A DNA stretch of 64,000 nucleotides from Candidatus Micrarchaeota archaeon (GTDB lineage: Archaea; Micrarchaeota; Micrarchaeia; Anstonellales; Anstonellaceae): the NCBI GenBank assembly GCA_026413965.1, contig JAOAJY010000003.1, forward strand, positions 27,727-91,726. The letters are read 5' to 3'. A program made the position numbers and the translations under genes. How positions within the stretch are numbered: the stretch's first letter is position 1; each line of letters starts with the position of its first letter. Under the pieces are notes generated by a model, which worked only from the letters and a program-made list of their open reading frames with translations, did not search any database and was not told where the DNA came from. This document shows positions 4,990 through 63,667 of the stretch, one piece after another.

Positions 4990-6954
4990 ATGCAGGATTT
5001 TCAGAGCAAAGAAGGAAAGAACAAGGCTTCTGGAATGGCTTATGGCGAGGCCAAAAGGATTATTGATGGTGCCGGTTTTTTGCAAAGGCCCTCTTGCCCT
5101 GATGCGGTAATCCGCGAGGCAATCAAGGCGAAAAATCCAAGGGAAGCTGCCGGAAATGTGAGATCGGCTCTTGACAAAATAGCAAGGTTTTCAGGAGAAA
5201 GAGCAAAACATGCTTTTGGCGCCCTTGAAAATGAGGATATTGCAAGGCTGTTTGTTTCAAATCCTAATGCTTTTGCCGACATCGCAAATGCGGTTGGAGA
5301 GAATGCAGAAACTGTTTTTTACGCCCTTAACACCAAGGCAATAAAAGAGATGTTTGAGAAGAATCCTAAAGAATTAGCCTGGGCATTAAGCCAGATTGCA
5401 AAAGCTGGCGGAAAGGATGCTTTTCGCTTTTTCTATCTTCTTTTTGACGAAACATACGCTAATATGCTAAAAAATAATCCTGAGGCGATGGTTGAAACGT
5501 TTTTTGAAATTGCAAAGGCAGACCAGCAAGGTTTTGACACTCTGATTATTATGGGTGCTCTTAGAAATGAAAGAATTCAGGCTTTGTTTGAGAAGAAAAG
5601 GCGCAAAACGGTAAAAGCCCTCATTGATGTTGCAATGAAAATGGGGCAGGATGCCTGGCGCGCTTTTGACGCCCTTGCGAATGAAGCAGTTCCAGAGAAA
5701 TTTTTTGAGGACTACCTGGAAGGCAAAAAATCGTTTGAATGCTTAACCTTGGCAATAAAGAGCTCAGACACATATGCAATAGAGGTTGGAAGAATGCTTG
5801 ATGATCTGCACGACAACGAGCCTGCAAGAAGGAAATATCTTGCCTCTCTTTCAAAAGAAGATGTCCTTGCTTTGCTTCTTTCCAATCCAGAGTTTTTCTA
5901 CACTTCCACCAACCACATGCTTTTTGACCGCCTCAACAAAGATTTCAAGCCAGGAGAGCTTGCGGAATACTTGAAGAATATTGGGGTTGAAGGCACAGAA
6001 TTGCACAGGAACCTGATTTTCAGGGCGATAAACTATGACAGGCTATATGGAAAGAAGAACTCAATTTTCAATGGAGAGAGCCTTATCAGCATCTTGGACA
6101 GCCTGCTTGCCCCCCTGAATTCTGGATATGACGCAAGATATTACTATTTGCTTGCTAATGCTCTTGAAAGATTTGACGAGAAAAGCAAACGCTATATAGC
6201 AAAAAAAATAGTCCGGGAACAAGCCAGGATGATTTCTTCCTCTGAAGAGAAAGACGAAAGAAAATGGGTGGCCTTGAATTTCCTTATCCGGAATATGAAC
6301 CAGCAAGAGAAAAACGTGTTTGACGCAAGCAAGTATAAAGACAGAGACGGCAAGCTGCTTGTGGTCCAAATATTTGACAAGGACGACACTGGAAAGGACC
6401 ATTGGTTCCTTTCGCAGAAATGGTTCTCCAAATACGCAAAGCCAAAAAAAGGATCAGATGGCGAGCTGATATATGAAACGGCAGATGCAAGAATTGTGCT
6501 TTTCATGGGGGAGACGGAAAAGGACAACCAGGACTTTTTGAGGAAAATTCTTGACAGAGCCGATGGATTTATTTTGGCTTTCAGGGGGCACAGCTACAGC
6601 CTCAAGCGCAATATCCCTCCTGAGATTTTTGGAAACCTGAAAAAGGATGTGCTTTTTATTCCAGGAAGCTGCGGAAGCTCAGCAGCCATTCCTGAATACA
6701 TGGACACCAATCCGAACACGGCATTTGAGTTTATTGCGAATACCTCAACTGGAAGGGGGCAGGTGACTAACGCTCTTTTGGAAATTCTGATCAGACAAGC
6801 AGCAAATGGAAAGAAGATAACCGTTGAAGAAATAATAAGGAGCAACTCGATTGCTATCCAAAAGAACGGAGGAGACCCTGAAACCCTCTGGATAGGCACT
6901 TTGGGTGAGAAGCTCATAAAGCATGTCAATTCGGCAGGCTATTTTCCGGATTAG
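4990..6954 (+). CDS. Hypothetical 654-aa protein: NP-motif helical repeats plus alpha/beta-like C-terminal domain
   Basis: Contains 4-5 copies of a roughly 35-aa helical repeat (LFVSNPNAF, MFEKNPKEL, MLKNNPEAM, LLLSNPEFF). The C-terminal part has GFILAFRGHSY and VLFIPGSCGS. No family recognised. Sample 5401-5500 is 38 % GC. Confidence 0.75.
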   Translation: MQDFQSKEGKNKASGMAYGEAKRIIDGAGFLQRPSCPDAVIREAIKAKNPREAAGNVRSALDKIARFSGERAKHAFGALENEDIARLFVSNPNAFADIANAVGENAETVFYALNTKAIKEMFEKNPKELAWALSQIAKAGGKDAFRFFYLLFDETYANMLKNNPEAMVETFFEIAKADQQGFDTLIIMGALRNERIQALFEKKRRKTVKALIDVAMKMGQDAWRAFDALANEAVPEKFFEDYLEGKKSFECLTLAIKSSDTYAIEVGRMLDDLHDNEPARRKYLASLSKEDVLALLLSNPEFFYTSTNHMLFDRLNKDFKPGELAEYLKNIGVEGTELHRNLIFRAINYDRLYGKKNSIFNGESLISILDSLLAPLNSGYDARYYYLLANALERFDEKSKRYIAKKIVREQARMISSSEEKDERKWVALNFLIRNMNQQEKNVFDASKYKDRDGKLLVVQIFDKDDTGKDHWFLSQKWFSKYAKPKKGSDGELIYETADARIVLFMGETEKDNQDFLRKILDRADGFILAFRGHSYSLKRNIPPEIFGNLKKDVLFIPGSCGSSAAIPEYMDTNPNTAFEFIANTSTGRGQVTNALLEILIRQAANGKKITVEEIIRSNSIAIQKNGGDPETLWIGTLGEKLIKHVNSAGYFPD

Positions 6955-7501: not shown

Positions 7502-8812
7502 CTAAGGATAGACGCGGTTTATCGTGCGAGGAAATGGTATGGCGTCGCGGATGTGGTCAAGGTTCAGCATCCACTTCACAAGCCTCTCTATCCCAAGGCC
7601 GAAGCCAGAGTGGGGGAATGGGCCGTATCTTCGCAGATCTATGTACCACTCGTAATCCTTGGGGTTGAGGTTGTTCTCTTTCAGCCTGCGCATAAGCTCA
7701 TCATACTCCCAAATCCTCTCTGAGCCGCCGATTATCTCTCCGTGAGCCTCAGGCGCAAGCACATCGGCGTTCAGGACCGTCCCTGGATTGCTTGGGTCCT
7801 CGCGCATGTAGAAGGCTTTGATTTCTTTCGGGAAATTGGTGACAAAAACGGGCTTCTCCTCGTCTTTTGTGAGCAAAGCCTCCTCATCTGCGCCCAAATC
7901 CTGTCCCTTTTTGATGTTTGCCCCGCTTCTTGCGGCGATTTCCACCGCTTCCTCATAAGTCATCCGCTTGAAGGGAGCACGCACGGCTTTGAGCTTTTCA
8001 GGCTGCCTGCCTATAGCCAAAAGAAGGTCAGGATGGCTGTCTGCCATTTTTTGGCAAACGTACTCCAGCATGCGCTCCTGAAGGCGCATGTTCATCTTCT
8101 GGTCGTAGAACGCCATCTCAGGCTCCAAGTGCCAGTACTCGCACAAGTGCCTCACTGTCCTTGAAGGCTCTGCCCTGAAAGAGGGGGCAAGCACATAGAC
8201 GTTTTCAAGCGCGGTGGTGAAAACCTCAGCATAAAGCTGGCTTGACTGGGTAAGGTAGGCTTTTTCCCCAAAATAGCTTATCTCAAAAAGCGTGGAGCCG
8301 CCTTCGCAGGCTGCGCCCGTGATTATGGGCGGGGCAAGCTCCCAGAATCCCTCCTTCTCAAAAAACTCCCTAAGATAAAATATTATCTTGTGCCTAGCTT
8401 TCATTATGTTGGTGAGGCGCTGGCTGCGCAGCCATAGGTGGCGCGTGTCCAAAAGGAACTCTACTGACTGGTCCTTTGCGATTGGGAAAGGCTCGCCTTG
8501 AGCCACTAGCTTCACAGATGAGGCGGAAATTTCGTACCCGCCCGGAGCCCGCGCGTCCTGCTTCACAACCCCCTCCACCAATATGGTGGATTCTATGTAT
8601 GCCTGGGAGGCTGAAATGAACGAGCTTTCCCCTACTGCATCCTTTTTGATTGCGCACTGCACTACGCCTGTGGAGTCGCGCACCACCAAAAAGCAGATGC
8701 CTCCGCTGGTGCGGCTTCTGTGCACCCATCCGCGTATCCTGACTTTGCTATTCGTGAGGGAACCTGAGAGTATGCTCCCAATCTTCGCAAAATCGGTCCC
8801 CAGCGCGTCCAT
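7502..8812 (-). CDS. asnS: Asparaginyl-tRNA synthetase
   Basis: 436 aa, class IIb. Motif 2 is FRAEPSRTVRHLCEYWHLEPEMAF. The C-terminus HSGFGLGIERLVKWMLNLDHIRDAIPFPRT resembles the AsnRS ending (IPFPRT) rather than archaeal AspRS (FPRD). Confidence 0.85.
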   Translation of the reverse strand: MDALGTDFAKIGSILSGSLTNSKVRIRGWVHRSRTSGGICFLVVRDSTGVVQCAIKKDAVGESSFISASQAYIESTILVEGVVKQDARAPGGYEISASSVKLVAQGEPFPIAKDQSVEFLLDTRHLWLRSQRLTNIMKARHKIIFYLREFFEKEGFWELAPPIITGAACEGGSTLFEISYFGEKAYLTQSSQLYAEVFTTALENVYVLAPSFRAEPSRTVRHLCEYWHLEPEMAFYDQKMNMRLQERMLEYVCQKMADSHPDLLLAIGRQPEKLKAVRAPFKRMTYEEAVEIAARSGANIKKGQDLGADEEALLTKDEEKPVFVTNFPKEIKAFYMREDPSNPGTVLNADVLAPEAHGEIIGGSERIWEYDELMRRLKENNLNPKDYEWYIDLRRYGPFPHSGFGLGIERLVKWMLNLDHIRDAIPFPRTINRVYP

Positions 8813-8851
8813 GGCATTACCTCCGAATTGATAAGGAAGAATAATATAAAA

Positions 8852-10051
8852 TCACCATCCATAGTATTTTGCCCGAGACTTGCCAAGCGCCTCCATGGCA
8901 GGCACGAACCCTTTTGCGAAAAAGCCAGGGGCGTTCAGCAGGACATTCAGCCCGACTTTGAGCTTGCCTGCCCAGCTTATTGAGGTCAAGTTTTTTGGTA
9001 TCAATTGCCCTATCTTGCTCAGCTCTTCATCCGAAAAATTGTAGAATGCCTTCTTGCCAAAGACCAGCTTTGAGTAATCCGGGAACTCCGCCCTCCACAG
9101 CCTTTCATACTCTGACAGGGCGGCTTTGTCAGTCCTCCCCCTGTGCAAAGCCTTGGCTGCTACCTCGGATGCGAACTTTGCCGAAGACATGGCAAGGCTG
9201 GTCCCGCCCTCAAACATGGGAGAAGTGAAGCCTGCGGCATCGCCAACCAGAAGCAGGCCATCTGAGTAGGTGTTGGCGACAGGCCCTGAGGCAGGAATCA
9301 TGCCCCCGAATGCCACCTTTCCCACTTTTCTTTTCTCCCTAAGCCCGTATTCGTCAATGAATTGCTCCAAATATTTTCTGGTGCCAGGCGGGTCATTTGT
9401 GACCAATCCCACATTCGCCCGGCTGCCCTTTTTTGGTATCACCCAAAGGTAGCCGTGCGGAGCCAGCCTGGGCCAAAGGAAGAAGTCTATGAAGCCATCC
9501 GATTCGATTGGGGAAAGCTCATACTGCAGCCCGACCACTGTCTGCGGAGGCTGGTTTAGGCCAAGCAGCTTTGAGGCCACGCCTGCCACTCCTGATGCGT
9601 CAATTATTATCTTCGCCTTATATTCGCCTTGGGTAGTGGAGACTTGCCACTTGCCATCATTTCTGGCAAGCCCGCTGACTCTGTGCCTGGTCTTGTAAGC
9701 CGCTCCAGCCTCTTGACCAAGCTTTGCCAAAAAGCGCTCAAACTTCTCCTTTTCCAGCGTGAAGCCTGGCTCCTCAATGTAGGAATATGAGCGGTTGGGC
9801 CATATCACCCTGATGCCTTTTGCCCTCATGGAGATTGCCTCCTCTGGAAGCTCAATCCCCAGCCTTTGGACAGCAAGCAGGGAGAGGCACTCACCGCAGT
9901 GCACCGGCTCGCCTATGCGCTCATGCTCCTCGAAAACCACAGTGCGCAAGCCTGACTTTGCGGCAGAATATGCCGCGTATGTGCCTGCAGGGCCGGCGCC
10001 AATTATTGCGATGTCAAACTCTTCCATCATTTCCCGATTTGGCTGAATCAA
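8852..10051 (-). CDS. Geranylgeranyl reductase family flavoprotein
   Basis: 399 aa. N-terminal FAD fingerprint FDIAIIGAGPAGTYAA. Later LLVGDAAGFTSPMFEGG is typical of archaeal GGR. Confidence 0.8.
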   Translation of the reverse strand: MIQPNREMMEEFDIAIIGAGPAGTYAAYSAAKSGLRTVVFEEHERIGEPVHCGECLSLLAVQRLGIELPEEAISMRAKGIRVIWPNRSYSYIEEPGFTLEKEKFERFLAKLGQEAGAAYKTRHRVSGLARNDGKWQVSTTQGEYKAKIIIDASGVAGVASKLLGLNQPPQTVVGLQYELSPIESDGFIDFFLWPRLAPHGYLWVIPKKGSRANVGLVTNDPPGTRKYLEQFIDEYGLREKRKVGKVAFGGMIPASGPVANTYSDGLLLVGDAAGFTSPMFEGGTSLAMSSAKFASEVAAKALHRGRTDKAALSEYERLWRAEFPDYSKLVFGKKAFYNFSDEELSKIGQLIPKNLTSISWAGKLKVGLNVLLNAPGFFAKGFVPAMEALGKSRAKYYGW

Positions 10052-10944: not shown

Positions 10945-11187
10945 ATGGGGCTTGTTGAGACCCTAAGCGGGATTGAAAGCCTTCTTTTGCAGCTTGGGCC
11001 TATAATCTCGGTCATACTTATTGTGCTTGGAGGAATAGTCTATGGGCTTGCCCAGACGCAGCCTTCGGACCAGCGCGGAAAGTACATAACGACAGCATAC
11101 GCGATGATTGCTGGGGGCATAGTGGTTGCGGCAATAAGCGGCGCAGCCACCTTGATTGCGCAGAATTCCGCCAATCTTCTCAAGTGA
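10945..11187 (+). CDS. Small two-TM membrane protein (VirB2/TrbC-like topology, speculative)
   Basis: ATG preceded by GGTGGGAGGT. 80 aa. TM1 is GPIISVILIVLGGIVYGLA, the polar loop is QTQPSDQRGKY and TM2 is ITTAYAMIAGGIVVAAISGAATLIA. Confidence 0.6.
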   Translation: MGLVETLSGIESLLLQLGPIISVILIVLGGIVYGLAQTQPSDQRGKYITTAYAMIAGGIVVAAISGAATLIAQNSANLLK

Positions 11188-11908
11188 GTATGGTGTATTT
11201 GCTGATGTATATCTGAGTCTGCAGCACTATAAGGAAAGGCACCAGCACAAGCGAATTTGCCAAAAGCACAGCCAGGGAGCCTATCTTGTATGGGAGCAGG
11301 GAGAGGAAAAGCCAGTCCAGGAAAGAAAGAAGCGCAAATGCTATTGCAATCCAGAGGATGAAATAGGGGAATTTGGAGAACACCATGCTGAATGATTTTT
11401 GGGCTGCCCGGAAGGGGCGAAGCTCATCTATCACCAGCCCGGCAGGGGCAAAAAATAGAGGCAGCCAGACAAGAAGCGAAAGCAGAGGCGAGAGCCATGA
11501 TTGCGAGCCCAGCTCAAATGTCAGCAGCTGGATTATGAGAAGGGCTATGGTGCCAAGCAGAAAGAGGATGAAGACATTGAATGTGTGCCCGGTTATGCCT
11601 TTGACGACCTCGTTTTTTATGTTTGTGGCTGTGCGCTGGCTCTTTATGACAATTGTTATATTCACTATCGCAAACGACATGAGGTAAAGGGATGCCAACA
11701 GGCTGGCTATTATAATCCCAAGCTCAGAAGGCTTCAGATCCGGGATGCTTCCTGTGCGAAGAAAAGTTGCCCCAAGCGCAGAAAAAACCGGCGTATTGAC
11801 AACAGCGGGTATGATGAAAGCAAGAAGCGCGGGGACAGCGAAAAGCGAAATCAGCTTCACATTCTTAAGATATGCATTGATGGAATGGGAGAGGATATTG
11901 TCTGCCAT
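11180..11908 (-). CDS. Polytopic membrane protein, unknown function
   Basis: 242 aa with about six hydrophobic segments. No family recognised. Confidence 0.65.
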   Translation of the reverse strand: MADNILSHSINAYLKNVKLISLFAVPALLAFIIPAVVNTPVFSALGATFLRTGSIPDLKPSELGIIIASLLASLYLMSFAIVNITIVIKSQRTATNIKNEVVKGITGHTFNVFILFLLGTIALLIIQLLTFELGSQSWLSPLLSLLVWLPLFFAPAGLVIDELRPFRAAQKSFSMVFSKFPYFILWIAIAFALLSFLDWLFLSLLPYKIGSLAVLLANSLVLVPFLIVLQTQIYISKYTILT

Positions 11909-25667: not shown

Positions 25668-25775
25668 GGGGTCGTGGCGTAACCTGGTAGCGCGGCAGGC
25701 TCCAGATCTCACCTGCGCATGCGCGCAGGCAACAGAATACACCTGCATGTTAGGGTTCAAATCCCTACGATCCCA
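25668..25775 (+). tRNA. tRNA-Trp(CCA) with a 35-nt canonical 37/38 intron
   Basis: Hand fold: acceptor GGGGTCG/CGATCCC; D arm GCGT-AACCTGGTA-GCGC; anticodon arm GCAGG-CTCCAG[intron 25706-25740]A-CCTGC; T arm TAGGG-TTCAAAT-CCCTA; discriminator A. The intron contains the hairpin CCTGCGC/GCGCAGG. Confidence 0.85.
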
Positions 25776-27791: not shown

Positions 27792-28007
27792 ATGGAGGAA
27801 GAAGACGGCCAGAATGCGGCAAATTCCGAGTTGCGCTTCATAACGCTGGAGCTGATGAAGCTTGCCCAAAAGTCAGGCAAAAGCTTTGAGGAAGTGGCGC
27901 TGGAGTATCTGCGCAACACATGCCTCTTGCAGGAGCTGATTGCAAACGGGCAAGAGAGCAGAGAAACCAAGATTGGACATACAGCAGCTGCCTCCAAGCG
28001 CAAGTGA
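27792..28007 (+). CDS. Small hypothetical protein (71 aa)
   Basis: Internal ATG of the track ORF 27540-28007 gives MEEEDGQNAANSELRFITLELMKLAQKSGKSFEEVALEYLRN.... The upstream part of that ORF is antisense to the NMD3-like gene. Confidence 0.5.
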   Translation: MEEEDGQNAANSELRFITLELMKLAQKSGKSFEEVALEYLRNTCLLQELIANGQESRETKIGHTAAASKRK

Positions 28008-28017
28008 AGGTTGTCCT

Positions 28018-29820
28018 ATGGGCAGCTCGCAGGTTAAGAAAGACGCCTTGGAGCTATCCAAATATTTCCTCTCCCTTCCGCATCCTGCAAAAACCCTAGC
28101 CGCGATTTTGGCATTGTCCTTTCTTTTCGGCATAGTGCTTGGGGCTTTCCGCAAACCCAGCCAAAGCTCATTTGAGGCGCTTGCCGCAGGCATTGACGGC
28201 CTTTTCCTTCTGGCTTTCCCTGCCATACTCTCAAGCGTCAGCCTTTTCCTTGTGCGCAGAAAGGCTCTTTTGCGCCGCTCTTTGTTCCTTGGGCTTCTTT
28301 CAACAATAGCCTATGGGGCATTCTACCTTCTTTCAGCCTCTCTTTCCGGCTTTTGGCCTGGCGCGGCGAACCTCGTCTATGTCGGCTTTGCGCTGGCGTT
28401 TGTCCTTTGGTATTTCGTGCTTCTCCTTGCCTTTGGCTTCAGAAAAAGCGCGCTTTTCCTTGCGGCAATCCAGGCAATGTTTTTCGCGATATTCTTCATG
28501 GCCGGATGGGAGTACAGCTCTTCCCAGCAGCTGCAGGACATAGTCCTCCGCATCTACCTTGCCTCATTCATCTTCCTTGCCGCCCTCTACGCCCTCTTCT
28601 ATTTCATCTCAGCGCCCATGAAAAAGAACCTTGGCATCTCCAGCCTGGATGCGCTTTCCATGTTTGCCTCTCAGTGGCTTTACAGGCAAAAGGATTTGGA
28701 AGAGGTGTTTGAGGAGTTTGGCGAGGAAGTTGAGACTATGGTGTGGGTGGGCGAATTCGCAGGCAGGAAAAACCATGCAATATTCGTCGTCCCATACATA
28801 CACTTCGGGCCTTTCGGCAACCTTGGAGGAAGCGAGTTCACCTGGATGATTGCCGAAAGGCTCTCCAAAATCTGGAGAAGGGAAAAGGCTCCTGCCCCTG
28901 AGGTCTTTGTCTTCCACGGCACAGTCACCCATGACTTCAACCCGGTTTCCTCAAGCGAGATTGACGCTGTGCTTTCGGCATGCACAAAAGCTCTGCGCAA
29001 GCTTCGGCTCTCCAACGCCAAAATGGCGCACTATTATTGCCGGGTTGGGACCGTGCGCGCGCAGGCTTACCACATAAACAGCTCAGCCTTTGTCTCATTC
29101 TCAAGGGCGCCCCGCACGACCGAGGATGTGAATCTTGGGCTGGGGCTGGCAATCATGGAGTCTGCCAGAAGAAAGTGCAAAAGCGTGGCGGTTGTGGATG
29201 AGCACAACGCAGAGACAGGGGACATAACCTCTGTTGAGGTTGGAAGCCCTATTGGCTTTGAGATGCTTGAGGCGGCTGGGAGGCTTTTTGAGAGTAGGAA
29301 AAAGCAGGAGAAGTTCCTTTTTGGCGTCTCCTCAGGAAGCCTGCAGCTGGATGCGCTTGGCAAGAACGGAATGAAGCTTGCGCTCTTCAAGCAGGCAGGC
29401 AGGCTTCGCGCCATCTTGCTTATTGATTCAAACGGCGTGGTTCCTGAGTTCCGGCAAGAGCTTGTGGGGCTTTTTGCCTCCCTTGGAAGGGAGATTGGGC
29501 TTGAATGCGCAGGGGAGGTAATGACAACTGACACGCACCAGATAAACACTGTGAAAGGAGTGCTCAACCCGATTGGAAGCGAAAGGAGAGGAGACATCAT
29601 GATGCTGGTCCGAAGGCTCTTCCACCAGGCGATGCAGAGGATGGAGGAAGTCCGATTTGACTCATCTGAGGAGAGATTCCGCATAAAGGTTTTTGGGGCA
29701 GGGCAGTCGGCAGAAATAGCATCCACCATAAACGGCGTGGTGGCGATGCTGAGGCTGGCTTTGCCAGTCATCCTTCTTGCAAGCGCGGCGGTGCTGCTTT
29801 GGGCTTTGGGGAAAATCTGA
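28018..29820 (+). CDS. Large polytopic membrane protein with soluble C-terminal domain (possibly DUF2070-type)
   Basis: ATG at 28018 lies just after the stop of the small ORF. About eight N-terminal TM helices are followed by a roughly 330-aa soluble domain and a final TM. The DUF2070 assignment is from memory of its architecture only. Confidence 0.65.
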   Translation: MGSSQVKKDALELSKYFLSLPHPAKTLAAILALSFLFGIVLGAFRKPSQSSFEALAAGIDGLFLLAFPAILSSVSLFLVRRKALLRRSLFLGLLSTIAYGAFYLLSASLSGFWPGAANLVYVGFALAFVLWYFVLLLAFGFRKSALFLAAIQAMFFAIFFMAGWEYSSSQQLQDIVLRIYLASFIFLAALYALFYFISAPMKKNLGISSLDALSMFASQWLYRQKDLEEVFEEFGEEVETMVWVGEFAGRKNHAIFVVPYIHFGPFGNLGGSEFTWMIAERLSKIWRREKAPAPEVFVFHGTVTHDFNPVSSSEIDAVLSACTKALRKLRLSNAKMAHYYCRVGTVRAQAYHINSSAFVSFSRAPRTTEDVNLGLGLAIMESARRKCKSVAVVDEHNAETGDITSVEVGSPIGFEMLEAAGRLFESRKKQEKFLFGVSSGSLQLDALGKNGMKLALFKQAGRLRAILLIDSNGVVPEFRQELVGLFASLGREIGLECAGEVMTTDTHQINTVKGVLNPIGSERRGDIMMLVRRLFHQAMQRMEEVRFDSSEERFRIKVFGAGQSAEIASTINGVVAMLRLALPVILLASAAVLLWALGKI

Positions 29821-29821
29821 T

Positions 29822-31228
29822 TCAGCCAACCTCGCTTCCGCCGCTTTCTTTCTTCATTCCATAGTCTGCAAGGCTTGCCTTGAACCACGAGCCGTATTTC
29901 TCGCGGGCTTGCTCCTCAATTGGCCGGGAGTTGGCAATGGCGAATCGGACCTCATCCTTGCCTATCATCTCTTTGCCCTCGGTTATCGCCAAATCCCCTG
30001 CCATCTTTATGGCGCCTGAAAGCAGGCGCAGGCGCAAAGTCAAGCCAGAAACGCCTTCTATCTCCTTGGCTTTCCTTCTTGCGAAATCCAGCATCTCCTC
30101 AATTGCGCCGCCATCCATATGCGGTATCCTGCCGTCGCGCACAATCTCCTGCGCAAAAAATTGGACCATCTTCATCCTGTTGGCTTCGTTGTCTTCCATG
30201 TGCGTGTTCATGAGTATTTCATACCCGTTTCCGATTATTCTGCTGCGCAACGGAGGCAGTATGTGGGACAAATCGTTTATGTTTGCCGCAGCCACCAAGA
30301 TGAAATCAGCAGGCACTCCATCCACCCTCACAGAGGAGCCGGTGGAGGTCTGGTTCCTCCCTGAAATTGGGTATTTTTTCTCCTGCATGGCTGTGAGAAG
30401 ATACCTCTGCAGCCTGCCAAGGGAAGAAAGCTCGTCTATGAACAGCACTCCCTCATGGGCTTCATGCACAGCCCCTGGGACCACGCGCGTGTAAGGCAGG
30501 GAGCCTATGGCAGGATGGGAGCCGTATGGGTCGTGCCGCACATCCCCCAAAAGCTCGGTCTCGGATGCGCCCGTGGCTTGGACAAAATTTGGCCTTGAGA
30601 GAGGCAGCAAAACTTTGAACTGCGCCTTCTGCTGCATTTCTGCCATCTTGGCAAGCTCTTTTTGGGTAAGCAGGGCTATTTTGTCCCCTCTCCTTTCAAA
30701 CACGATAAGCTCTTCTCTCCCGTCGCGGAAGCGGGTGGTGTGCACGCGCTCTTCCCTGTCAGGCACCCCCACGCCTACAAGCAGGTCCTCGAAAGGTCCG
30801 CGCACCTTGCGGTATTTGTCAGCCCCGCAAAAAAAGCAAGTGGAAGCATCCGGGCTTGAAATCTTGGCGCATCTTCTGCACCTGAAGCCAAGCTTCTCGG
30901 CGACAAATGCCGGCACCATGTTGGGATCCAGAAGCTCAGCCACAGGCTTCTTTTCTATCCTCCTGGAAGTTGAGGTGTTTATCTGTATGAGAGGGCGCTC
31001 TGGCTTCTCTGGATTGTGGAGGACAAGGACTTCTTGCTTTGGCTTGGGCAGCGTGGAGGCTATTGCCTGCGCAAGCATGGACTTTCCAGTCCCTGGCGGC
31101 CCAACCAGAAGGAGATTGCGCCGCTGCTTGCCAACCAGCCTCCCTATCTTCACAGCTTCGTCTTGCCCAATGACTTGCAGCATGGGGTCTGAGGGTATCC
31201 TCACCTCTGCTGTTGATGAAATGTCCAT
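29822..31228 (-). CDS. LonB-like AAA+ ATPase lacking a protease domain
   Basis: VIGQDEAVKIGRLVGKQRRNLLLVGPPGTGKSMLAQAIA (Walker A, LonB-like N-terminus). Walker B is GVLFIDEL. A CRRCAKISSPDASTCFFCG zinc-ribbon insert is present. 468 aa, with no Ser-Lys protease domain. Confidence 0.7.
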   Translation of the reverse strand: MDISSTAEVRIPSDPMLQVIGQDEAVKIGRLVGKQRRNLLLVGPPGTGKSMLAQAIASTLPKPKQEVLVLHNPEKPERPLIQINTSTSRRIEKKPVAELLDPNMVPAFVAEKLGFRCRRCAKISSPDASTCFFCGADKYRKVRGPFEDLLVGVGVPDREERVHTTRFRDGREELIVFERRGDKIALLTQKELAKMAEMQQKAQFKVLLPLSRPNFVQATGASETELLGDVRHDPYGSHPAIGSLPYTRVVPGAVHEAHEGVLFIDELSSLGRLQRYLLTAMQEKKYPISGRNQTSTGSSVRVDGVPADFILVAAANINDLSHILPPLRSRIIGNGYEILMNTHMEDNEANRMKMVQFFAQEIVRDGRIPHMDGGAIEEMLDFARRKAKEIEGVSGLTLRLRLLSGAIKMAGDLAITEGKEMIGKDEVRFAIANSRPIEEQAREKYGSWFKASLADYGMKKESGGSEVG

Positions 31229-34163: not shown

Positions 34164-34691
34164 TTATGAAAGCGATTTCCAAAACAGGATTAGGGTGAAG
34201 AATTTCGCAAGAAATACGGCAAGCCAGAGCTTTAGAGGCTCAATCGTGGTCATCCCCATGAGCGCAAGCCCAAGCTCATCAGGCAGCGGGAGCCCGAAAA
34301 CAAAAAAGCCGACGATCGGATAGGCTGCCTTTGCGCGACTGAACTTTCTGTCTATGCTCTCCAATATGCCCCTCGCGTTTTTCTCAAGGCTTTTTCGCAC
34401 CGCAAGAAAAAGAAGCAGGTTGGCGGTTGCGGCTGAAAGGGCAGCAAGAAAAGCAGAGGCAAATGGGCTGTTGAGCTTCATTAGCTCAAGTATAACCACC
34501 ATGGAAAGAGGGGTTGTTATGCCCAGGGTGTAAAAAACGCCTGCCAAAAGCGCCCCATAATCGCCGAACTCGAAAAGGCGAAGCGAAATGTCCCTGTCAA
34601 CACCTGCCAGCACCAGCATGAAGGTGAGGAGTATGAAAGAGATTGCTATCTTGAGCCTCATGTCAAGGTTGAGAATGCCTGCGAAAAGCAT
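34164..34691 (-). CDS. Polytopic membrane protein, unknown function
   Basis: 175 aa with four or five hydrophobic helices. Confidence 0.6.
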   Translation of the reverse strand: MLFAGILNLDMRLKIAISFILLTFMLVLAGVDRDISLRLFEFGDYGALLAGVFYTLGITTPLSMVVILELMKLNSPFASAFLAALSAATANLLLFLAVRKSLEKNARGILESIDRKFSRAKAAYPIVGFFVFGLPLPDELGLALMGMTTIEPLKLWLAVFLAKFFTLILFWKSLS

Positions 34692-53293: not shown

Positions 53294-54154
53294 TCAGTTG
53301 AAGGCTTTCATGACCTCGTCAAAGTTGGAGTATGGGAGCGCGCCTGCGAACACTATCCCAAATCCTGCTCCCTCAACCTCAACCACTGAAGCATCCACCC
53401 CAAGCCCAGAAAGCTTGGAGGCTATGGTTGAGAGCCTGGACTGGAGAGCCTCGCTTCTGTCTTTGGTGGAATAAGCCAAAAAGCCAGGGGTTCCCCTTAT
53501 TCCTATGCTTTCACCCTCATCCATCTGGCTTTGGACAGCTGACGCCATCTTTCCGCTGTCAAGGCAGCTGTTGAATTTTGCTGTGTCAAGCCCAATCGCA
53601 GCTGCCTTTGCCTTCAAGTCTGGCACGGACAGCTTGTTTTGCTCTGCGAACATGGCATCGTGCATCTCAAAGAACTTCCCCTGCTCTCCAGCGCACTCCG
53701 CAGCCTCGGCTGCCTTTTGGGCGTTCGGATGGAATGGAAGTGGGAAGTGCCTGAAAACGTATTTTGCTTCAGGATAGGACTTCTTAAGCTGAGCAAGTGT
53801 GGGATTGACCCTGTTGCAGAAGGGGCACTCAAAATCAGAGTATTCCACCAGCACCACTTTAGCATCAGCTTTGCCTTTGAAATAGGAATTGCTGTAATCC
53901 AGCCCTGAAACCTTTGGAGAGCCTTGCTTTGGCTCCGGCTGAGGCTGCGCCTGGGGCGAAGGCTGCGCCTGGCTTCCTCCGCTTGGGGCTGATGGAGCAG
54001 TTAGCTTCACCTTCCCTATTGCCTCCTGTATCCCAGAAGAGCCGATGTAAATGGTGGCTGAAACAAGAAGGGCTGCAAGTATGATTGCGATGCCAATTAC
54101 ATATTCCCCTTGCTCTAAGCCACGAACCGCTTTGTCTGCCTTTTCAGTCATCAT
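53294..54154 (-). CDS. Membrane-anchored DsbA/thioredoxin-like thiol:disulfide oxidoreductase
   Basis: N-terminal TM, a Pro/Gln-rich linker (QAQPSPQAQPQPEPKQ), then EYSDFECPFCNRV (CPFC active site), FRHFPL and GTPGF. Confidence 0.8.
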   Translation of the reverse strand: MMTEKADKAVRGLEQGEYVIGIAIILAALLVSATIYIGSSGIQEAIGKVKLTAPSAPSGGSQAQPSPQAQPQPEPKQGSPKVSGLDYSNSYFKGKADAKVVLVEYSDFECPFCNRVNPTLAQLKKSYPEAKYVFRHFPLPFHPNAQKAAEAAECAGEQGKFFEMHDAMFAEQNKLSVPDLKAKAAAIGLDTAKFNSCLDSGKMASAVQSQMDEGESIGIRGTPGFLAYSTKDRSEALQSRLSTIASKLSGLGVDASVVEVEGAGFGIVFAGALPYSNFDEVMKAFN

Positions 54155-59664: not shown

Positions 59665-60171
59665 TCATCTCCAAACAAACACGCGCATCCTGGCAGGCCG
59701 CATCTTGCCAGAAGAATCTTGGATGGACACCCCTCTGTGCGCCACTGCAACCTCCCTTCCGGAATCATATGTGCAGTTCCCCATGCGCTTTATTGGGAGG
59801 TTGTCCTCTGTGTATTCCAAAAGGATGCAATACTCTGCCGGAGCCCTCATTATTTTGCCTGAGCCAGCATAATTGTTGGCTATCCAATAATCCAGCTTGT
59901 CCAGCTTTGACCGGTTGATCTGGTTTGAGAATCCGGAAGCTATCCCAAACTGCTTCACATCATTCAAGGAAGAGGCGGACTGCCATCCAGAAGGAACTCC
60001 CGGAGAAAGCAAAGACTCTGCCATCCGCATGGCGCCTGGATGGAGAGGCAGCATTCGCGATTCTGCTGCTTGCTGCGCTCCATACCAGTAGCCCATAAGG
60101 GAAGCCATTGCGACTGCCATTATGACTGTGGCAACCACAGCGTCAAATGAAAAATACTGGCCTTTCAGCAT
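59665..60171 (-). CDS. Type IV prepilin-like protein (class III signal peptide)
   Basis: N-terminus MLKGQYFSFDAVVATVIMAVAMASLMGYWY. Fifth gene of an overlapping operon. Confidence 0.6.
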   Translation of the reverse strand: MLKGQYFSFDAVVATVIMAVAMASLMGYWYGAQQAAESRMLPLHPGAMRMAESLLSPGVPSGWQSASSLNDVKQFGIASGFSNQINRSKLDKLDYWIANNYAGSGKIMRAPAEYCILLEYTEDNLPIKRMGNCTYDSGREVAVAHRGVSIQDSSGKMRPARMRVFVWR

Positions 60172-60683
60172 GATGCTGCCCTCCCGAAAGTGATGTTCCC
60201 TGCCTGGTTTGAGATATTAAGGCAGGAAACTGTGCTGTTTATCTCTATGAAATCCCCGCTATAGCCTATTCCTGAGCCTAAGGAAGATATCCCGAAAGAT
60301 GCTGTTATGGCTGGGGCTGAGACTGAGGATTTTCCGCTGTTCCAATTCACATAGACAAACCCTGTCTCATTCTGCGCCTGCTGCCCGTATGCGCGGCTCA
60401 CCATAAACTGGTAGTTTTTCCCAAGCAAATCCGGAGGGATCCGAACGGTGTGCCAAAAACCGTCCCCTGCCACAAATGCCACGTTTATTTGGTCGGAAAG
60501 CTGGTATGCGATTTGCTGAGCATAAGCATTCTCGGCTTTGGCAATCTCTTGGGATTGCAGATAGAAAAAAATCGCTATTGAAAGCAGAAGCATCAGCAAA
60601 AACAGCACAGAATAGGATATGACCTCCACTGCAGCCTGCCCTATGCTGCATCTGGAAGCTGCTGGAATGGAAGCATCACCCAT
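60165..60683 (-). CDS. Type IV prepilin-like protein (class III signal peptide)
   Basis: N-terminus ...SRCSIGQAAVEVISYSVLFLLMLLLSIAIFFYL. Overlaps each neighbour by 7-8 nt. Confidence 0.6.
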   Translation of the reverse strand: MGDASIPAASRCSIGQAAVEVISYSVLFLLMLLLSIAIFFYLQSQEIAKAENAYAQQIAYQLSDQINVAFVAGDGFWHTVRIPPDLLGKNYQFMVSRAYGQQAQNETGFVYVNWNSGKSSVSAPAITASFGISSLGSGIGYSGDFIEINSTVSCLNISNQAGNITFGRAASC

Positions 60684-61116
60684 ATCTCACCACGACCGCG
60701 CCAAGCGAATGATTGTAGAACAAGTCTATCCTTTGCGGGCCGGCGTTCCTCCTTCCAGAGAGATTGCCGGTTATGTTGGCAAATGCCGGGCTTGCCACAT
60801 CTGTCCTTCTTCCGCCCACATCCATCGTCAAGACCACCAATCCTCCTTCCACAGCCCCATCCGCCACTCCGCTTGGGTAATTGACTGTGATTGACTTTTT
60901 GGAGCCAGGACCCTGAAGATACACTTCTCCTGCCTCATCAGATATTATCCTTGCGGCTATTCTTGCCTGCTCAAGCGAGGATTTGCCAGCCTCTTCTCCT
61001 GACATGGAAAGGAAAAGCAAAGCCAAAGGGATGATGAAAAGCAGCACGAATGCCACAAAGACCAGCATCTCCACAGCCGCCTGCCCTGAAACATGTGATC
61101 TTTCCATCTGCACCAC
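60676..61116 (-). CDS. Type IV prepilin-like protein (class III signal peptide)
   Basis: N-terminus MVQMERSHVSGQAAVEMLVFVAFVLLFIIPLALLFL, a GQAAVE motif resembling that of TadE/archaeal pilins. Confidence 0.65.
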   Translation of the reverse strand: MVQMERSHVSGQAAVEMLVFVAFVLLFIIPLALLFLSMSGEEAGKSSLEQARIAARIISDEAGEVYLQGPGSKKSITVNYPSGVADGAVEGGLVVLTMDVGGRRTDVASPAFANITGNLSGRRNAGPQRIDLFYNHSLGAVVVRYG

Positions 61117-62784
61117 TCAGCTGCACGGAGCCATCCTGGGGAACCTGCTGTCCACATTGCAGGCAGTCAGGTTCAGCCCATACCTTGCGACATCCTCGTT
61201 CCTAAGCCTGAAAAATCCTACCCCTATTTGGTTGGGGTCATTTGAGCTGCACATGTCTTTGCTTTTGCACCCCATCATGCCTTTTATCCTCGGGGTTAAT
61301 GCTTCCGTCTGGGGAGGATAGGTGGAGTAGAAAACCCAGTCCAGCTTGGTGAGCCTCTGGTGCTGGCCGCCATTTGAGGCGTCATCTGAGCCTCCTGCCC
61401 ATCTGCCGACCAAAAATGACTCTATGCCGTAATCGCTTCGCAGCGAGCCTGCATCGCTTGACACCCCTGCCTGAGCAAGCATGCGCTGGAAGAAAGAAGG
61501 CGCAAGGGGAGATTCCACGTAAAATCCGCATATGGAAGCATCCCTTATTGCGCTCATGTCCCAGATATGATGGTGGTCTGCGTCATCAAGAGCCTCTTCT
61601 GGAGTCTCCTTTGGATTGTCAATAAGGATATACCTTTGGCTTCTGAGCCCTTGGCGCGCAACTTGGGGAATGCGGGAAAGCCAGGCTGAGCCGTCGGTTG
61701 CCATATACGGGGAAGAGGTTTTGTTGCGCACTTCAGGCGCCTTTGCGCACCCAGGCTGGCTGGAGAAATAGCGAGTGACGCAGTTGAGGCATTTGGTCTC
61801 GCTTCGGGCTGTGAACTGGCATCCTGTGTCCGGGTCGGTGTAGTTGTAATACTCATATTCTGGAAGATTGGTGATGACCACTGCTCCGAAAAGCGGAGCA
61901 TATGAGCTTATGTTTTCGTCCCAATTCTTCACCAGTATCATCTGGGATAGGGGCTGTTCCAAATCATCTGGCGAGCTGGGATAGTCGGTCATCACTGCGC
62001 CATAGAACCACCCGAATCCGCGGGTCCCGTTGAAGGCATTTTTCGGAGCCAAATCAGAGGGGAAGCGGTAAAGAGGATTCCTGAAAATCTGCTTGGAGGC
62101 TGCAAGCCCGGAGGGCACCCCTCTTCTTGCCATGTCGTTCCTGTGTACGAACGGGTCGGGCATTCCGACAATTGAGAAGCTTGAATTGGCCTTCAGCTTT
62201 TTGCTCTGCCTAAGGGTGTTCTCAAAATCAGATATGTTCAAGTCCATCTCAAAAGAAACCCCTACGGTCCAGGCATCTTTTTGGGAAATTTTCATGTTGT
62301 AAGGCTCAGAGAAAGACACTGAAAAGCCTGTTGCCGCCGCGGCTGAGCGCATTTTTTGCTTCCATGACTCTATTGTGTATGCCTCAAACTCCTCTTGCGA
62401 GTAATTGAGGGGAGGAGCCAGCGCGGTGGTGCCGTTTCTCATAAGCGAAAGGATGGCTTTCTCCACCTCGCCTGTCTGCGGATTTTTTGGGTCTGACGAT
62501 TGGGAAGATGCCAAGCCCGCTCCTGCTTGGGAGGAGTAATTGGCTAGCTTGAACGTGGCATAAAAGGCAGAGGCGTTCGCGAAATCCGAAATGGACTTGT
62601 CGGATATGGAGGAGAGCGCCAGCCTGGTGGCCTCTCCCTTGAAGCGCTGGGCTTGCCTTTGGTCAGACTGCTCCAAAGCCCGAACCCAAATCTGCACTGT
62701 GAAAAGCATGAAAGACAAAATCACAAGCGCCATCACTGTGAAGAAAAACCCTTTGGAAAATCTCTGCGCCATCGCATCACGCAT
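61117..62784 (-). CDS. Large prepilin-like protein (555 aa), possible adhesin or minor pilin
   Basis: N-terminus MRDAMAQRFSKGFFFTVMALVILSFMLFTVQIWV, followed by a roughly 520-aa soluble domain with several Cys. Confidence 0.6.
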   Translation of the reverse strand: MRDAMAQRFSKGFFFTVMALVILSFMLFTVQIWVRALEQSDQRQAQRFKGEATRLALSSISDKSISDFANASAFYATFKLANYSSQAGAGLASSQSSDPKNPQTGEVEKAILSLMRNGTTALAPPLNYSQEEFEAYTIESWKQKMRSAAAATGFSVSFSEPYNMKISQKDAWTVGVSFEMDLNISDFENTLRQSKKLKANSSFSIVGMPDPFVHRNDMARRGVPSGLAASKQIFRNPLYRFPSDLAPKNAFNGTRGFGWFYGAVMTDYPSSPDDLEQPLSQMILVKNWDENISSYAPLFGAVVITNLPEYEYYNYTDPDTGCQFTARSETKCLNCVTRYFSSQPGCAKAPEVRNKTSSPYMATDGSAWLSRIPQVARQGLRSQRYILIDNPKETPEEALDDADHHHIWDMSAIRDASICGFYVESPLAPSFFQRMLAQAGVSSDAGSLRSDYGIESFLVGRWAGGSDDASNGGQHQRLTKLDWVFYSTYPPQTEALTPRIKGMMGCKSKDMCSSNDPNQIGVGFFRLRNEDVARYGLNLTACNVDSRFPRMAPCS

Positions 62785-63400
62785 ATACCACCAAGCGTAT
62801 CAGCTGGATGGTGTTCTTTCCTTGCTGGAAATTTGAGGTTGGCGAATCGCAAGGCGTTGTGTTGCAAGGATATGCCGGCCCTGCGGGAGTGTAGCCGAAG
62901 CAGCTTATGTAGCAGAATGGAGAGGCTCCAGGATTCGGAGGCACATCATAAAGGGAGGCAAAAACTGTGGCGGATGCCTGGACTTTGGAGAAGGATTTTC
63001 CGTACCTGTCTGAAAGCGGGTCCCTGCCAGAGTCATACGCGGTGAAGACAGGATTTGCCGGGTCGTTGAAGTTGTAGAACTGCAGCTTGTAGGCATAGCC
63101 TTGCGGTATTATGCCGCGATGCGAAGAATTGCCGCCTGCGACTTTGAACATTATCTGGCGCAAGGCAGAAGGGTTGTTCCTGTTGGCTACTGCGCTTTCA
63201 AGATAAGTTGGGCCGCCTTGCGATTCTGATGTTGTGGCCATGACCTGCAGAGTGTCATGCGCAAGCTGGCGGGCTTGCTCAAGATAGGGGAAGTATGGCT
63301 TGGGCGTTCCAAGGCTGAACATAAGGACGCTTATGGAAAGCATGATGAGGGTGAATGCCACGAAAGCGTCAAGGGAAAATATGAAGCCAAGCAGGCGCAT
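62777..63400 (-). CDS. Type IV prepilin-like protein (class III signal peptide)
   Basis: Start moved to the ATG at 63400 (MRLLGFIFSLDAFVAFTLIMLSISVLMF). The track start at 63466 abuts the tRNA. Confidence 0.6.
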   Translation of the reverse strand: MRLLGFIFSLDAFVAFTLIMLSISVLMFSLGTPKPYFPYLEQARQLAHDTLQVMATTSESQGGPTYLESAVANRNNPSALRQIMFKVAGGNSSHRGIIPQGYAYKLQFYNFNDPANPVFTAYDSGRDPLSDRYGKSFSKVQASATVFASLYDVPPNPGASPFCYISCFGYTPAGPAYPCNTTPCDSPTSNFQQGKNTIQLIRLVVYA

Positions 63401-63468
63401 GCAGTTAGATTGGCTCAAAGGATATAAAATGGTTGAGGAGCCGTCGCTTGCCGGCAGAAAAGGCAAAA

Positions 63469-63557
63469 TGCGACCGCCGGGATTTCCATCATGCGATTTT
63501 GAACCCGGCCCGCGAGATTGGCAATCTCGAATCCTAACCAGGCTAGACTACGGTCGC
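63469..63557 (-). tRNA. tRNA-Gly(GCC) with a 15-nt T-loop insert
   Basis: Reverse-complement fold: acceptor GCGACCG/CGGTCGC; D arm GTCT-AGCCTGGTTA-GGAT; anticodon arm CGAGA-TTGCCAA-TCTCG; T stem CCGGG/CCCGG enclosing 22 nt (63482-63503); discriminator A. Confidence 0.75.

Positions 63558-63591: not shown

Positions 63592-63667
<76 letters not shown>

Follow-up and report, generated by a model that had tools for sequence, protein, structure and literature searches.

The window analysed here is a 64,000-nucleotide stretch of contig JAOAJY010000003.1 from a Candidatus Micrarchaeota archaeon, and its minus strand carries an operon of five consecutive open reading frames (ORFs), g1-g5 (59665-63400), that is interpreted below as encoding a set of type IV pilin-like proteins. 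In order of transcription, the genes are g1 (62777-63400; 207 aa from an ATG start), g2 (61117-62784; 555 aa), g3 (60676-61116; 146 aa from a GTG, or 143 aa from an alternative ATG at 61107), g4 (60165-60683; 172 aa) and g5 (59665-60171; 168 aa); their G+C content, 0.49-0.53, is the same as that of the window. Read directly in the sequence, consecutive genes overlap by 8 nt at the g1/g2 junction (ATGCGTGA), by 8 nt at g3/g4 (ATGGGTGA) and by 7 nt at g4/g5 (ATGCTGA), and g2 and g3 abut with 0 nt between them (TGA/GTG). Downstream, the convergent gene glmS ends at 59663, 1 nt from the stop codon of g5; upstream of g1 lie tRNA-Gly(CCC) (63593-63667) and, between it and g1, tRNA-Gly(GCC) (63469-63557, minus strand), which follows the former after 35 nt. 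A first-pass annotation, made by a model from the letters alone, had described the five minus-strand ORFs with their N-termini and the 555-aa member, three start/stop overlaps of 7-8 nt with abutment at the fourth junction, and flanks formed by tRNA-Gly genes and glmS; each of these statements agrees with the sequence.

The start of the operon is marked by a TATA-like box, TTTTATAT (63422-63429, minus strand), which can be read directly about 25 nt upstream of the g1 ATG at 63400. A regular expression detects an A/T-rich TATA-like box at 20-36 nt from g1, on its upstream side, in 15 of 29 orthologous loci, and about nine further loci carry TTTAATAT-type boxes that the expression missed and that were spotted by eye. 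The box therefore argues that g1 heads the operon with a promoter of its own, and its position implies a predicted transcript that would be a nearly leaderless mRNA. An alternative TTG start of g1 at 63466 is implausible, because it lies only 3 nt beyond the 3' end of the tRNA.

The same arrangement recurs throughout Micrarchaeota. The g2 protein of the window is 100% identical to hypothetical protein N3F07_02420 of a Candidatus Micrarchaeota archaeon metagenome-assembled genome and has 66 homologs, all named ones being from Micrarchaeota or Anstonellaceae. Scanning one genome per species yielded 42 loci, 41 of which are labelled Micrarchaeota, Micrarchaeia, Anstonellaceae or just 'archaeon' (the exception is a short contig binned as Planctomycetota), and a metagenome scan with the g5 family (alignment A4) added 80 more. 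As traced with hidden Markov models (HMMs), the order g1-g2-g3-g4-g5 is complete in 68 of 125 loci and, in the remainder, the same order is ended by the end of the contig; three of the 125 loci contain an extra g3-like gene. Among 1.84 billion proteins, the g5 profile retrieves 2105 cluster representatives at E<=1e-3 and, since its matches include Iainarchaeum, the g5 family is far from confined to Micrarchaeota. The five ORFs are real, as established by dozens to hundreds of homologs per family and by an order kept in 125 loci; that they are chance or mis-called frames, a view for which only their lack of database names could speak, is refuted by full-length conserved columns, by the synteny and by confident structure models, and its probability is negligible.

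All five proteins start in the manner of class III (prepilin-type) signal sequences. With the predicted cleavage site marked by a slash, the N-termini encoded in the window read MRLLG/FIFSLDAF in g1 and MLKG/QYFSFDAVVA in g5, both with D at +6; ..HVSG/QAAVEML in g3 and ..CSIG/QAAVEVISY in g4, both with E at +5; and ...FSKG/FFFTVMAL in g2. Site statistics were obtained by anchoring each family (26-33 orthologs, 148 scored in all) on the motif and tabulating positions -5 to +12. Of the 148, only one, a g3 sequence, departs from G or A at -1. At -2, K or R is found in 70% of g1, 85% of g2 and g3, 86% of g4 and 100% of g5 orthologs, and the residue at +1 is F for g1 and g2 but Q for the other three families. 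Q+1 and E+5 occur in 26/26 g3 and 28/28 g4 orthologs, where the glutamate produces the archaeal Q-x-S-x-E-x-x-x-L type of motif, and D+6 is invariant in g1 and g5 orthologs; in g2, neither +5 nor +6 is acidic. In every family, a hydrophobic stretch of about 20 residues comes right after the cleavage site. Conserved residues ahead of, and at the start of, the hydrophobic segment are the pattern of prepilin-peptidase substrates, and not of Sec signal peptides or plain anchors, so that the prepilin-type N-termini proposed in the first-pass annotation hold for all five families. A FlaFind-like strict scan, a check that it had recommended, was of mixed value: g2 was flagged at its true site, g1 was flagged only at a spurious DAFV site, an unrelated ORF (11180-11665) also scored, and the thresholds were too strict for g3-g5, which is why the ortholog site statistics were used instead.

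Some g3 and g4 orthologs (L011 11631-12218; L017 12190-12768; L020 4253-4720 and 4692-5258; L117 2311-2799) repeat the [KR]GQAAxE motif once or twice in an N-terminal extension that precedes the real signal; the extra copies are possibly mis-called starts, duplication remnants or decoy sites.

Beyond their signals, some of the five families are related to one another. g3, which has an invariant proline in its helix (alignment A6, 31 orthologs), and g4 (alignment A7, 30 orthologs) are full-length paralogs (hhalign probability 98.4%, E 4.6e-15, 146 columns). g1 and g5 (alignments A3 and A4) are homologous over about 63 N-terminal columns (hhalign 93%) and both end in a similar hydrophobic strand, which in g1 bears the C-terminal motif xVRLxVY; the g1 N-terminus is also characterized by a nearly invariant F-x-F-S-x-D-A (alignment A2, 26 orthologs). 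g2, whose long N-terminal helix is followed by a large Cys-rich globular head, resembles g1 only in the signal and helix. Links to Pfam are faint: there are weak matches to DUF7262 in 5/26 members of g1, a match to DUF7289 in 1/31 members of g3, matches to DUF7266 in 8/30 members of g4 (best E 1.9e-4) and matches to DUF7287 at E<0.1 in 10/26 members of g5 (best E 1.8e-5), several database homologs of which carry a precomputed PF23958 label. The five proteins of the window itself fall below every Pfam gathering score; its g5 has no DUF7287 match at E<=1 (gathering threshold 27 bits), the only match being to DUF7285 at 17.2 bits, and it thus appears to be a remote relative of DUF7287 and not a scoring member.

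The proteins bear hallmarks of an extracellular location: per 100 aa, the five have 1.77 N-x-S/T sequons, against 0.24 for 19 housekeeping proteins encoded in the window (Fisher p 9e-10). Conserved Cys residues are found in g1 and g2. The window also encodes a membrane-anchored DsbA/thioredoxin-like protein (53294-54154, minus strand; Thioredoxin_4 E 6e-25), a gene that would fit extracytoplasmic disulfide formation in these two Cys-rich proteins.

Structure models were made for g2 and g5. The AlphaFold2 model of g5, based on a 27-sequence alignment, reaches a predicted local distance difference test (pLDDT) value of 91.2 and consists of a kinked N-terminal helix (4-40 and 43-54), followed by two short helices and a four-stranded antiparallel sheet (113-167); the predicted order of elements is that of the classic pilin 'lollipop'. 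In the g2 model (pLDDT 84.9; predicted template modelling score 0.78), a 49-residue helix (11-59) carries a large alpha/beta head.

The genomic context that the Micrarchaeota operon lacks is supplied by a distant relative. P0319, a distant member of the g5 family, sits in a type IV filament locus of a groundwater archaeon (L127-L130), in which one strand encodes, in order, a 179-aa protein, a T2SSE ATPase, two T2SSF platform proteins, a KaiC-like ATPase, the g5 homolog, a 1136-aa VWA protein, a 310-aa protein and a 151-aa pilin, with two small genes placed divergently upstream of the machinery run. By HMM comparison in L127, the 160-aa gene after the KaiC-like one belongs to the g5 family (E 3.6e-31), the 310-aa protein to g2 (E 2.4e-22) and the divergent genes at 4335-4781 and 3933-4328 to g3 (E 1.7e-18) and g4 (E 4.9e-16), respectively; the VWA protein is of g1 type at its N-terminus only (E 5e-5). 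The locus thus shares with the operon clear homologs of g2, g3, g4 and g5 and a protein with a g1-type N-terminus, but differs from it in that these genes lie on either side of an ATPase gene, two platform genes and one KaiC-like gene, that the g3 and g4 homologs are divergent, that the g1-type protein is a 1136-aa VWA protein and that a separate 151-aa pilin is present. Its g2 homolog matches only positions 6-211 and 413-500 of the profile, which identifies the central ~200 aa of g2 (profile 212-412) as an insertion that the 310-aa protein is without. Overall, the locus resembles the archaeal type IV filament (TFF) 'system 1' (PMC4858521, bioRxiv 10.64898/2026.04.22.720090).

A second parallel is found in haloarchaea, where five overlapping genes follow pilB-pilC on Haloferax mediterranei pHM500 (HFX_RS17990-17970; L132 14109-17341) and on a plasmid of Halobaculum halophilum (HUG10_RS19810-19830; L133 13911-17288); their products match, in order, DUF7287-DUF7288-DUF7261-DUF7266-DUF7289 with strong scores. 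Like the operon, this cassette comprises five consecutive, overlapping, small-to-medium genes with N-terminal hydrophobic helices and paralog pairs. Profile comparison aligns g5 with DUF7287 over 155 columns (hhalign 89.5%, E 2e-6) and g4 with DUF7266 (35%, E 4e-4); g4 and DUF7287 align at the N-terminus only (49%), and the other family pairs stay below 10%. There are also clear differences: the haloarchaeal cassette comes directly after ATPase and platform genes, a position that the Micrarchaeota set never occupies; the DUF7287 gene comes first in haloarchaea whereas g5 is last in Micrarchaeota; and g2, with its 555 aa and insertion domain, has no detectable haloarchaeal counterpart, the largest protein there being DUF7261 (~320 aa), which is not significantly similar to it. 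One-to-one homology with the cassette across the five genes, combined with pilB-pilC adjacency, was accordingly not found. The pilB1 operon of H. volcanii, in which hvo_0618, predicted to encode a pilin, overlaps pilC1, is comparable; it is chromosomal, and no pilB1 operon is present around 550 kb of pHV4. Because they are consecutive overlapping genes after pilB-pilC on two plasmids, the DUF7287, DUF7288, DUF7261, DUF7266 and DUF7289 genes, whose families all bear the label 'unknown function' in Pfam, can be annotated as a pilus-associated pilin-like cassette; our literature search found no mention of DUF7262 or DUF7285-7289. As judged from sequence, the operon g1-g5 is a stand-alone, remote member of the pilin-like cassettes found alongside type IV filament machineries in archaea.

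Sets of this size and make-up have well-known bacterial analogues. GspH-I-J-K of type II secretion and FimU-PilV-W-X-E with PilY1 of type IVa pili are minor-pilin priming complexes, in which the largest member, devoid of an acidic +5 residue, caps the tip and the set is needed for the filament to start. GspHIJK and FimU-PilVWX share with the operon the number of four to five pilin-like genes and a largest member without acidic +5, but have no sequence or fold similarity to it; the signals of the operon are of archaeal type, and the relation is a functional analogy only. No bacterial pilin or pseudopilin family of Pfam or NCBIfam matches the five families, save for a stray TadE hit at E 0.035. 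Within archaea, the EpdA/EpdB/EpdC proteins of Methanococcus maripaludis, compared by description, likewise form an essential accessory pilin set with class III, Q-x-S-x-E type N-termini, but unlike the operon their genes belong to an 11-gene cluster that includes ATPase, platform proteins and a dedicated peptidase (PMC4858521). Archaeal pilin sets often lie apart from the ATPase/TadC module, and modules are exchangeable (Makarova et al., PMC4858521). Micrarchaeon Mia14 has two pilus systems and one FlaK-like peptidase (PMC5498576), pilus ATPases and TadC are encoded in published Micrarchaeota genomes (PMC5498576, PMC8561730), type IV pili are reported for Anstonellales, the closest named relatives of the window (PMC8561730), and the 'system 1' loci of DPANN archaea are noted to contain many pilins not yet characterised (bioRxiv 10.64898/2026.04.22.720090).

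Taken with the signal sequences and the models of g2 and g5, these comparisons make it probable that the five type IV pilin-like proteins act as a complex, most likely the minor-pilin (priming/tip) module of a type IV pilus-like filament. The fixed gene order and translational coupling point in the same direction, as they suggest a defined, roughly equimolar or stoichiometric complex and not a bulk filament subunit. Of the two options left by the first-pass annotation, a minor-pilin or adhesin complex with its motor encoded elsewhere is therefore the one favoured by the signals, the models, the synteny in L127 and haloarchaea and the published pilus genes; given this comparative evidence, an undescribed surface assembly need not be invoked.

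How such a module might work can be outlined as follows; cleavage, polymerisation, tip position and adhesive role are what we infer. A single promoter upstream of g1 would drive a translationally coupled, nearly leaderless transcript, the products of which would insert into the membrane and be cut after the G or A at -1 by a FlaK/PibD-type peptidase encoded elsewhere, exposing a new N-terminal F in g1 and g2 or Q in g3, g4 and g5. By analogy with characterized systems, the N-terminal helices would then bundle, with E+5 or D+6 of g1, g3, g4 and g5 pairing with the N-terminus of a neighbour. The role of cap is proposed for g2 because none of the other subunits is as large and because neither +5 nor +6 is acidic in it; like GspK of bacterial type II secretion, it would take the terminal position, and the other proteins would link it to the filament. 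A PilB/ArlI-type ATPase and a PilC/TadC platform encoded elsewhere would extend the major pilin beneath the complex, so that the glycosylated, disulfide-rich head of g2 would be displayed at the filament tip, where it could bind surfaces or the host cell that Micrarchaeota rely on.

An alternative is that a separate short filament or pseudopilus, complete in itself, is assembled from these five proteins, with g3 or g4 as the repeating subunit and g2 as the cap, in which case they would not be minor parts of a pilus that has a different major pilin. There is no separate major-pilin gene in the window or beside the operon in Micrarchaeota, the small paralogs g3 and g4 show the classic combination of Q+1 and E+5 and, in g3, the invariant helix proline, and the extra g3-like copy in three loci would suit a repeating subunit. 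Coupling, however, implies near-equal amounts of the five proteins, unlike what a major subunit would require; a separate short pilin gene stands beside the homologous set in L127 and in the haloarchaeal loci; and further pilins that stand alone are listed for published Micrarchaeota genomes (PMC5498576 supplement). On balance, a self-sufficient filament of this kind seems improbable.

Several observations weigh against a minor-pilin module. In the window proteins, K is present at -2 only in g2 and g5; g1, g3 and g4 have L, S and I there instead of K or R, with a basic residue at -4, -6 and -5, respectively. Foldseek comparison with the PDB returned no match of the g5 or g2 model to a pilin or any other fold (best E 0.013 and 0.011, respectively), the best matches of the heads having template modelling scores of about 0.1-0.25; g2 has no Foldseek match among viral structures (BFVD), sequence-profile searches of the PDB were empty for g2 and g5, and g2 is also without a Pfam match. 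The AlphaFold check of the soluble domains recommended in the first-pass annotation thus delivered a helix-plus-head architecture for g2 and g5, and no head that matches a solved fold. As pilin heads are highly variable, this weakens the pilin assignment without excluding it. In profile comparisons, homology to the haloarchaeal cassette appears solid only for g5, weak for g4 and not significant for g1, g2 and g3, and the function of that cassette is itself largely unknown. Cleavage and filament formation, moreover, are predictions from sequence, and the tip position of g2 is proposed by analogy with GspK.

To the same side of the balance belongs the separation of the operon from any recognizable motor. 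No T2SSE, T2SSF or A24 peptidase turned up when 30 window ORFs were scanned against Pfam, namely the 20 largest checked and 10 of middle size, two multi-transmembrane ORFs among them. Likewise, tblastn with the Pfam-verified T2SSE, two T2SSF and KaiC-like queries from L127/L130 against the window and the 125 loci (1.40 Mb) gave no T2SSE, T2SSF or KaiC-like match at E<=1e-3, be it in the window or up to 10 kb from the operon in those loci. This negative is meaningful because the same ATPase query finds known ATPases: as a positive control on the plasmid collection, it retrieved haloarchaeal ATPases at E 1e-50 to 1e-58 as well as bacterial CpaF. A Walker-motif regular expression (G..G[SAC]GK[ST]T plus GE[IVLM]R) was set aside, having missed a genuine T2SSE, and none of these machinery families occurs among the Pfam-annotated neighbours of the operon in L001-L003. 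Two unassigned multi-transmembrane ORFs of the window, 11180-11908 and 34164-34691, were ruled out as prepilin peptidases, as they have neither a GxGD motif nor a Pfam match. The Pfam scans, tblastn and the GxGD check therefore uphold the earlier statement that the window has no ATPase, platform protein or prepilin peptidase.

The lack of ATPase linkage in the Micrarchaeota loci lends some credit to a further possibility, namely that the five are non-polymerising, membrane-anchored surface proteins: either uncleaved anchors, or a cleaved, bindosome-like envelope complex that serves in binding or in an enzymatic activity of the g2 head. The absence of K/R at -2 from three of the window's five proteins agrees with this, as does the g2 head, which is confidently modelled and rich in invariant polar residues and has no known pilin or adhesin match; the Sulfolobus bindosome provides a precedent for class III signal proteins that do not form filaments (bioRxiv 10.64898/2026.04.22.720090). 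The invariant residues at +1 and +5/+6 and the G/A at -1, on the other hand, are hard to explain for a plain anchor, and homologs occur inside loci that also encode ATPase and platform proteins. We therefore consider such an envelope assembly unlikely, slightly more so than the self-sufficient filament; together, the two take up about a quarter of our expectation, and the minor-pilin module remains the preferred interpretation.

Micrarchaeota are ultrasmall, cultivated ones live attached to host archaea, and we know of no mechanism by which they attach. A set of genes that is phylum-wide, whose products are glycosylation-prone and predicted to be extracellular and which includes a large g2 head, confidently modelled and without a match among solved folds, is therefore a testable candidate for the tip or adhesin module of Micrarchaeota pili. 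A bolder and rather doubtful extension is that the operon encodes no accessory of ordinary adhesion pili but a dedicated host-contact device of Micrarchaeota and related archaea, a short motor-independent or motor-sharing pseudopilus whose 555-aa, new-fold, disulfide-rich g2 cap would recognise or breach the host envelope; if true, this would explain why the set has been kept, in fixed order and unlinked to an ATPase, across a phylum of reduced genomes.

The comparison also offers a first functional context, that of pilus-associated pilin-like proteins, for DUF7287 directly and for DUF7288, DUF7261, DUF7266 and DUF7289 by synteny, and extends this type of cassette beyond Halobacteria into DPANN archaea, the group of ultrasmall archaea to which Micrarchaeota belong. 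No description of the operon was found in the literature. What is new is the phylum-wide Micrarchaeota family, its consistent separation from motor genes and the enlarged g2 head with no match among solved folds; the kind of system is already known, and no new kind of machine is involved. The operon is a good lead for host attachment in DPANN archaea, and no surprise for specialists of pili.

Two kinds of neighbour recur beside the operon in other genomes. In 16 comparatively divergent Micrarchaeota loci (L002, at 8135-9370; L003, L023, L025-L028, L030, L031, L038, L045, L095, L108, L113, L120 and L121), a membrane-anchored signal peptide peptidase, SppA (TIGR00706, 203 bits), and a Cys-rich protein of ~110 aa are encoded directly upstream of g1 on the same strand, which makes a seven-gene arrangement; in the window as a whole, neither SppA nor the ~110-aa Cys-rich gene has a match. 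A functional tie between SppA and a set of proteins with signal peptides is possible. In at least 38 related loci, g5 is directly followed by a LonB-related AAA+ ATPase without protease domain, which is 75-80% identical across loci (L001 13466-16739). In the window, the corresponding gene lies at 27940-31228, and in both the window and L001 it is next to a DUF2070 membrane protein, the window pair being 30 kb from the operon. As a dedicated motor, this LonB-like gene was rejected, being LonB-related, of housekeeping type and 30 kb away in the window; its proximity elsewhere looks like clade-level synteny and not like that of a dedicated partner.

The remaining observations concern other parts of the window. 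Two divergent ORFs of about 650 aa (2917-4866, minus strand; 4990-6954, plus strand) have no Pfam match, and their N-termini look cytoplasmic, with neither signal nor hydrophobic segment. The tRNA-Gly(GCC) gene upstream of g1 contains a 15-nt insert inside the T-loop (GGGTTCAAA[ATCGCATGATGGAAA]TCCCGG), which is a non-canonical intron position; the gene is missed by ARAGORN and by an Rfam search at gathering thresholds, and ARAGORN calls it as tRNA-Gly(gcc) once the insert is removed. A 108-nt tRNA match at 25668-25775 (plus strand; Rfam 51 bits), also not called by ARAGORN, is presumably another intron-containing tRNA.

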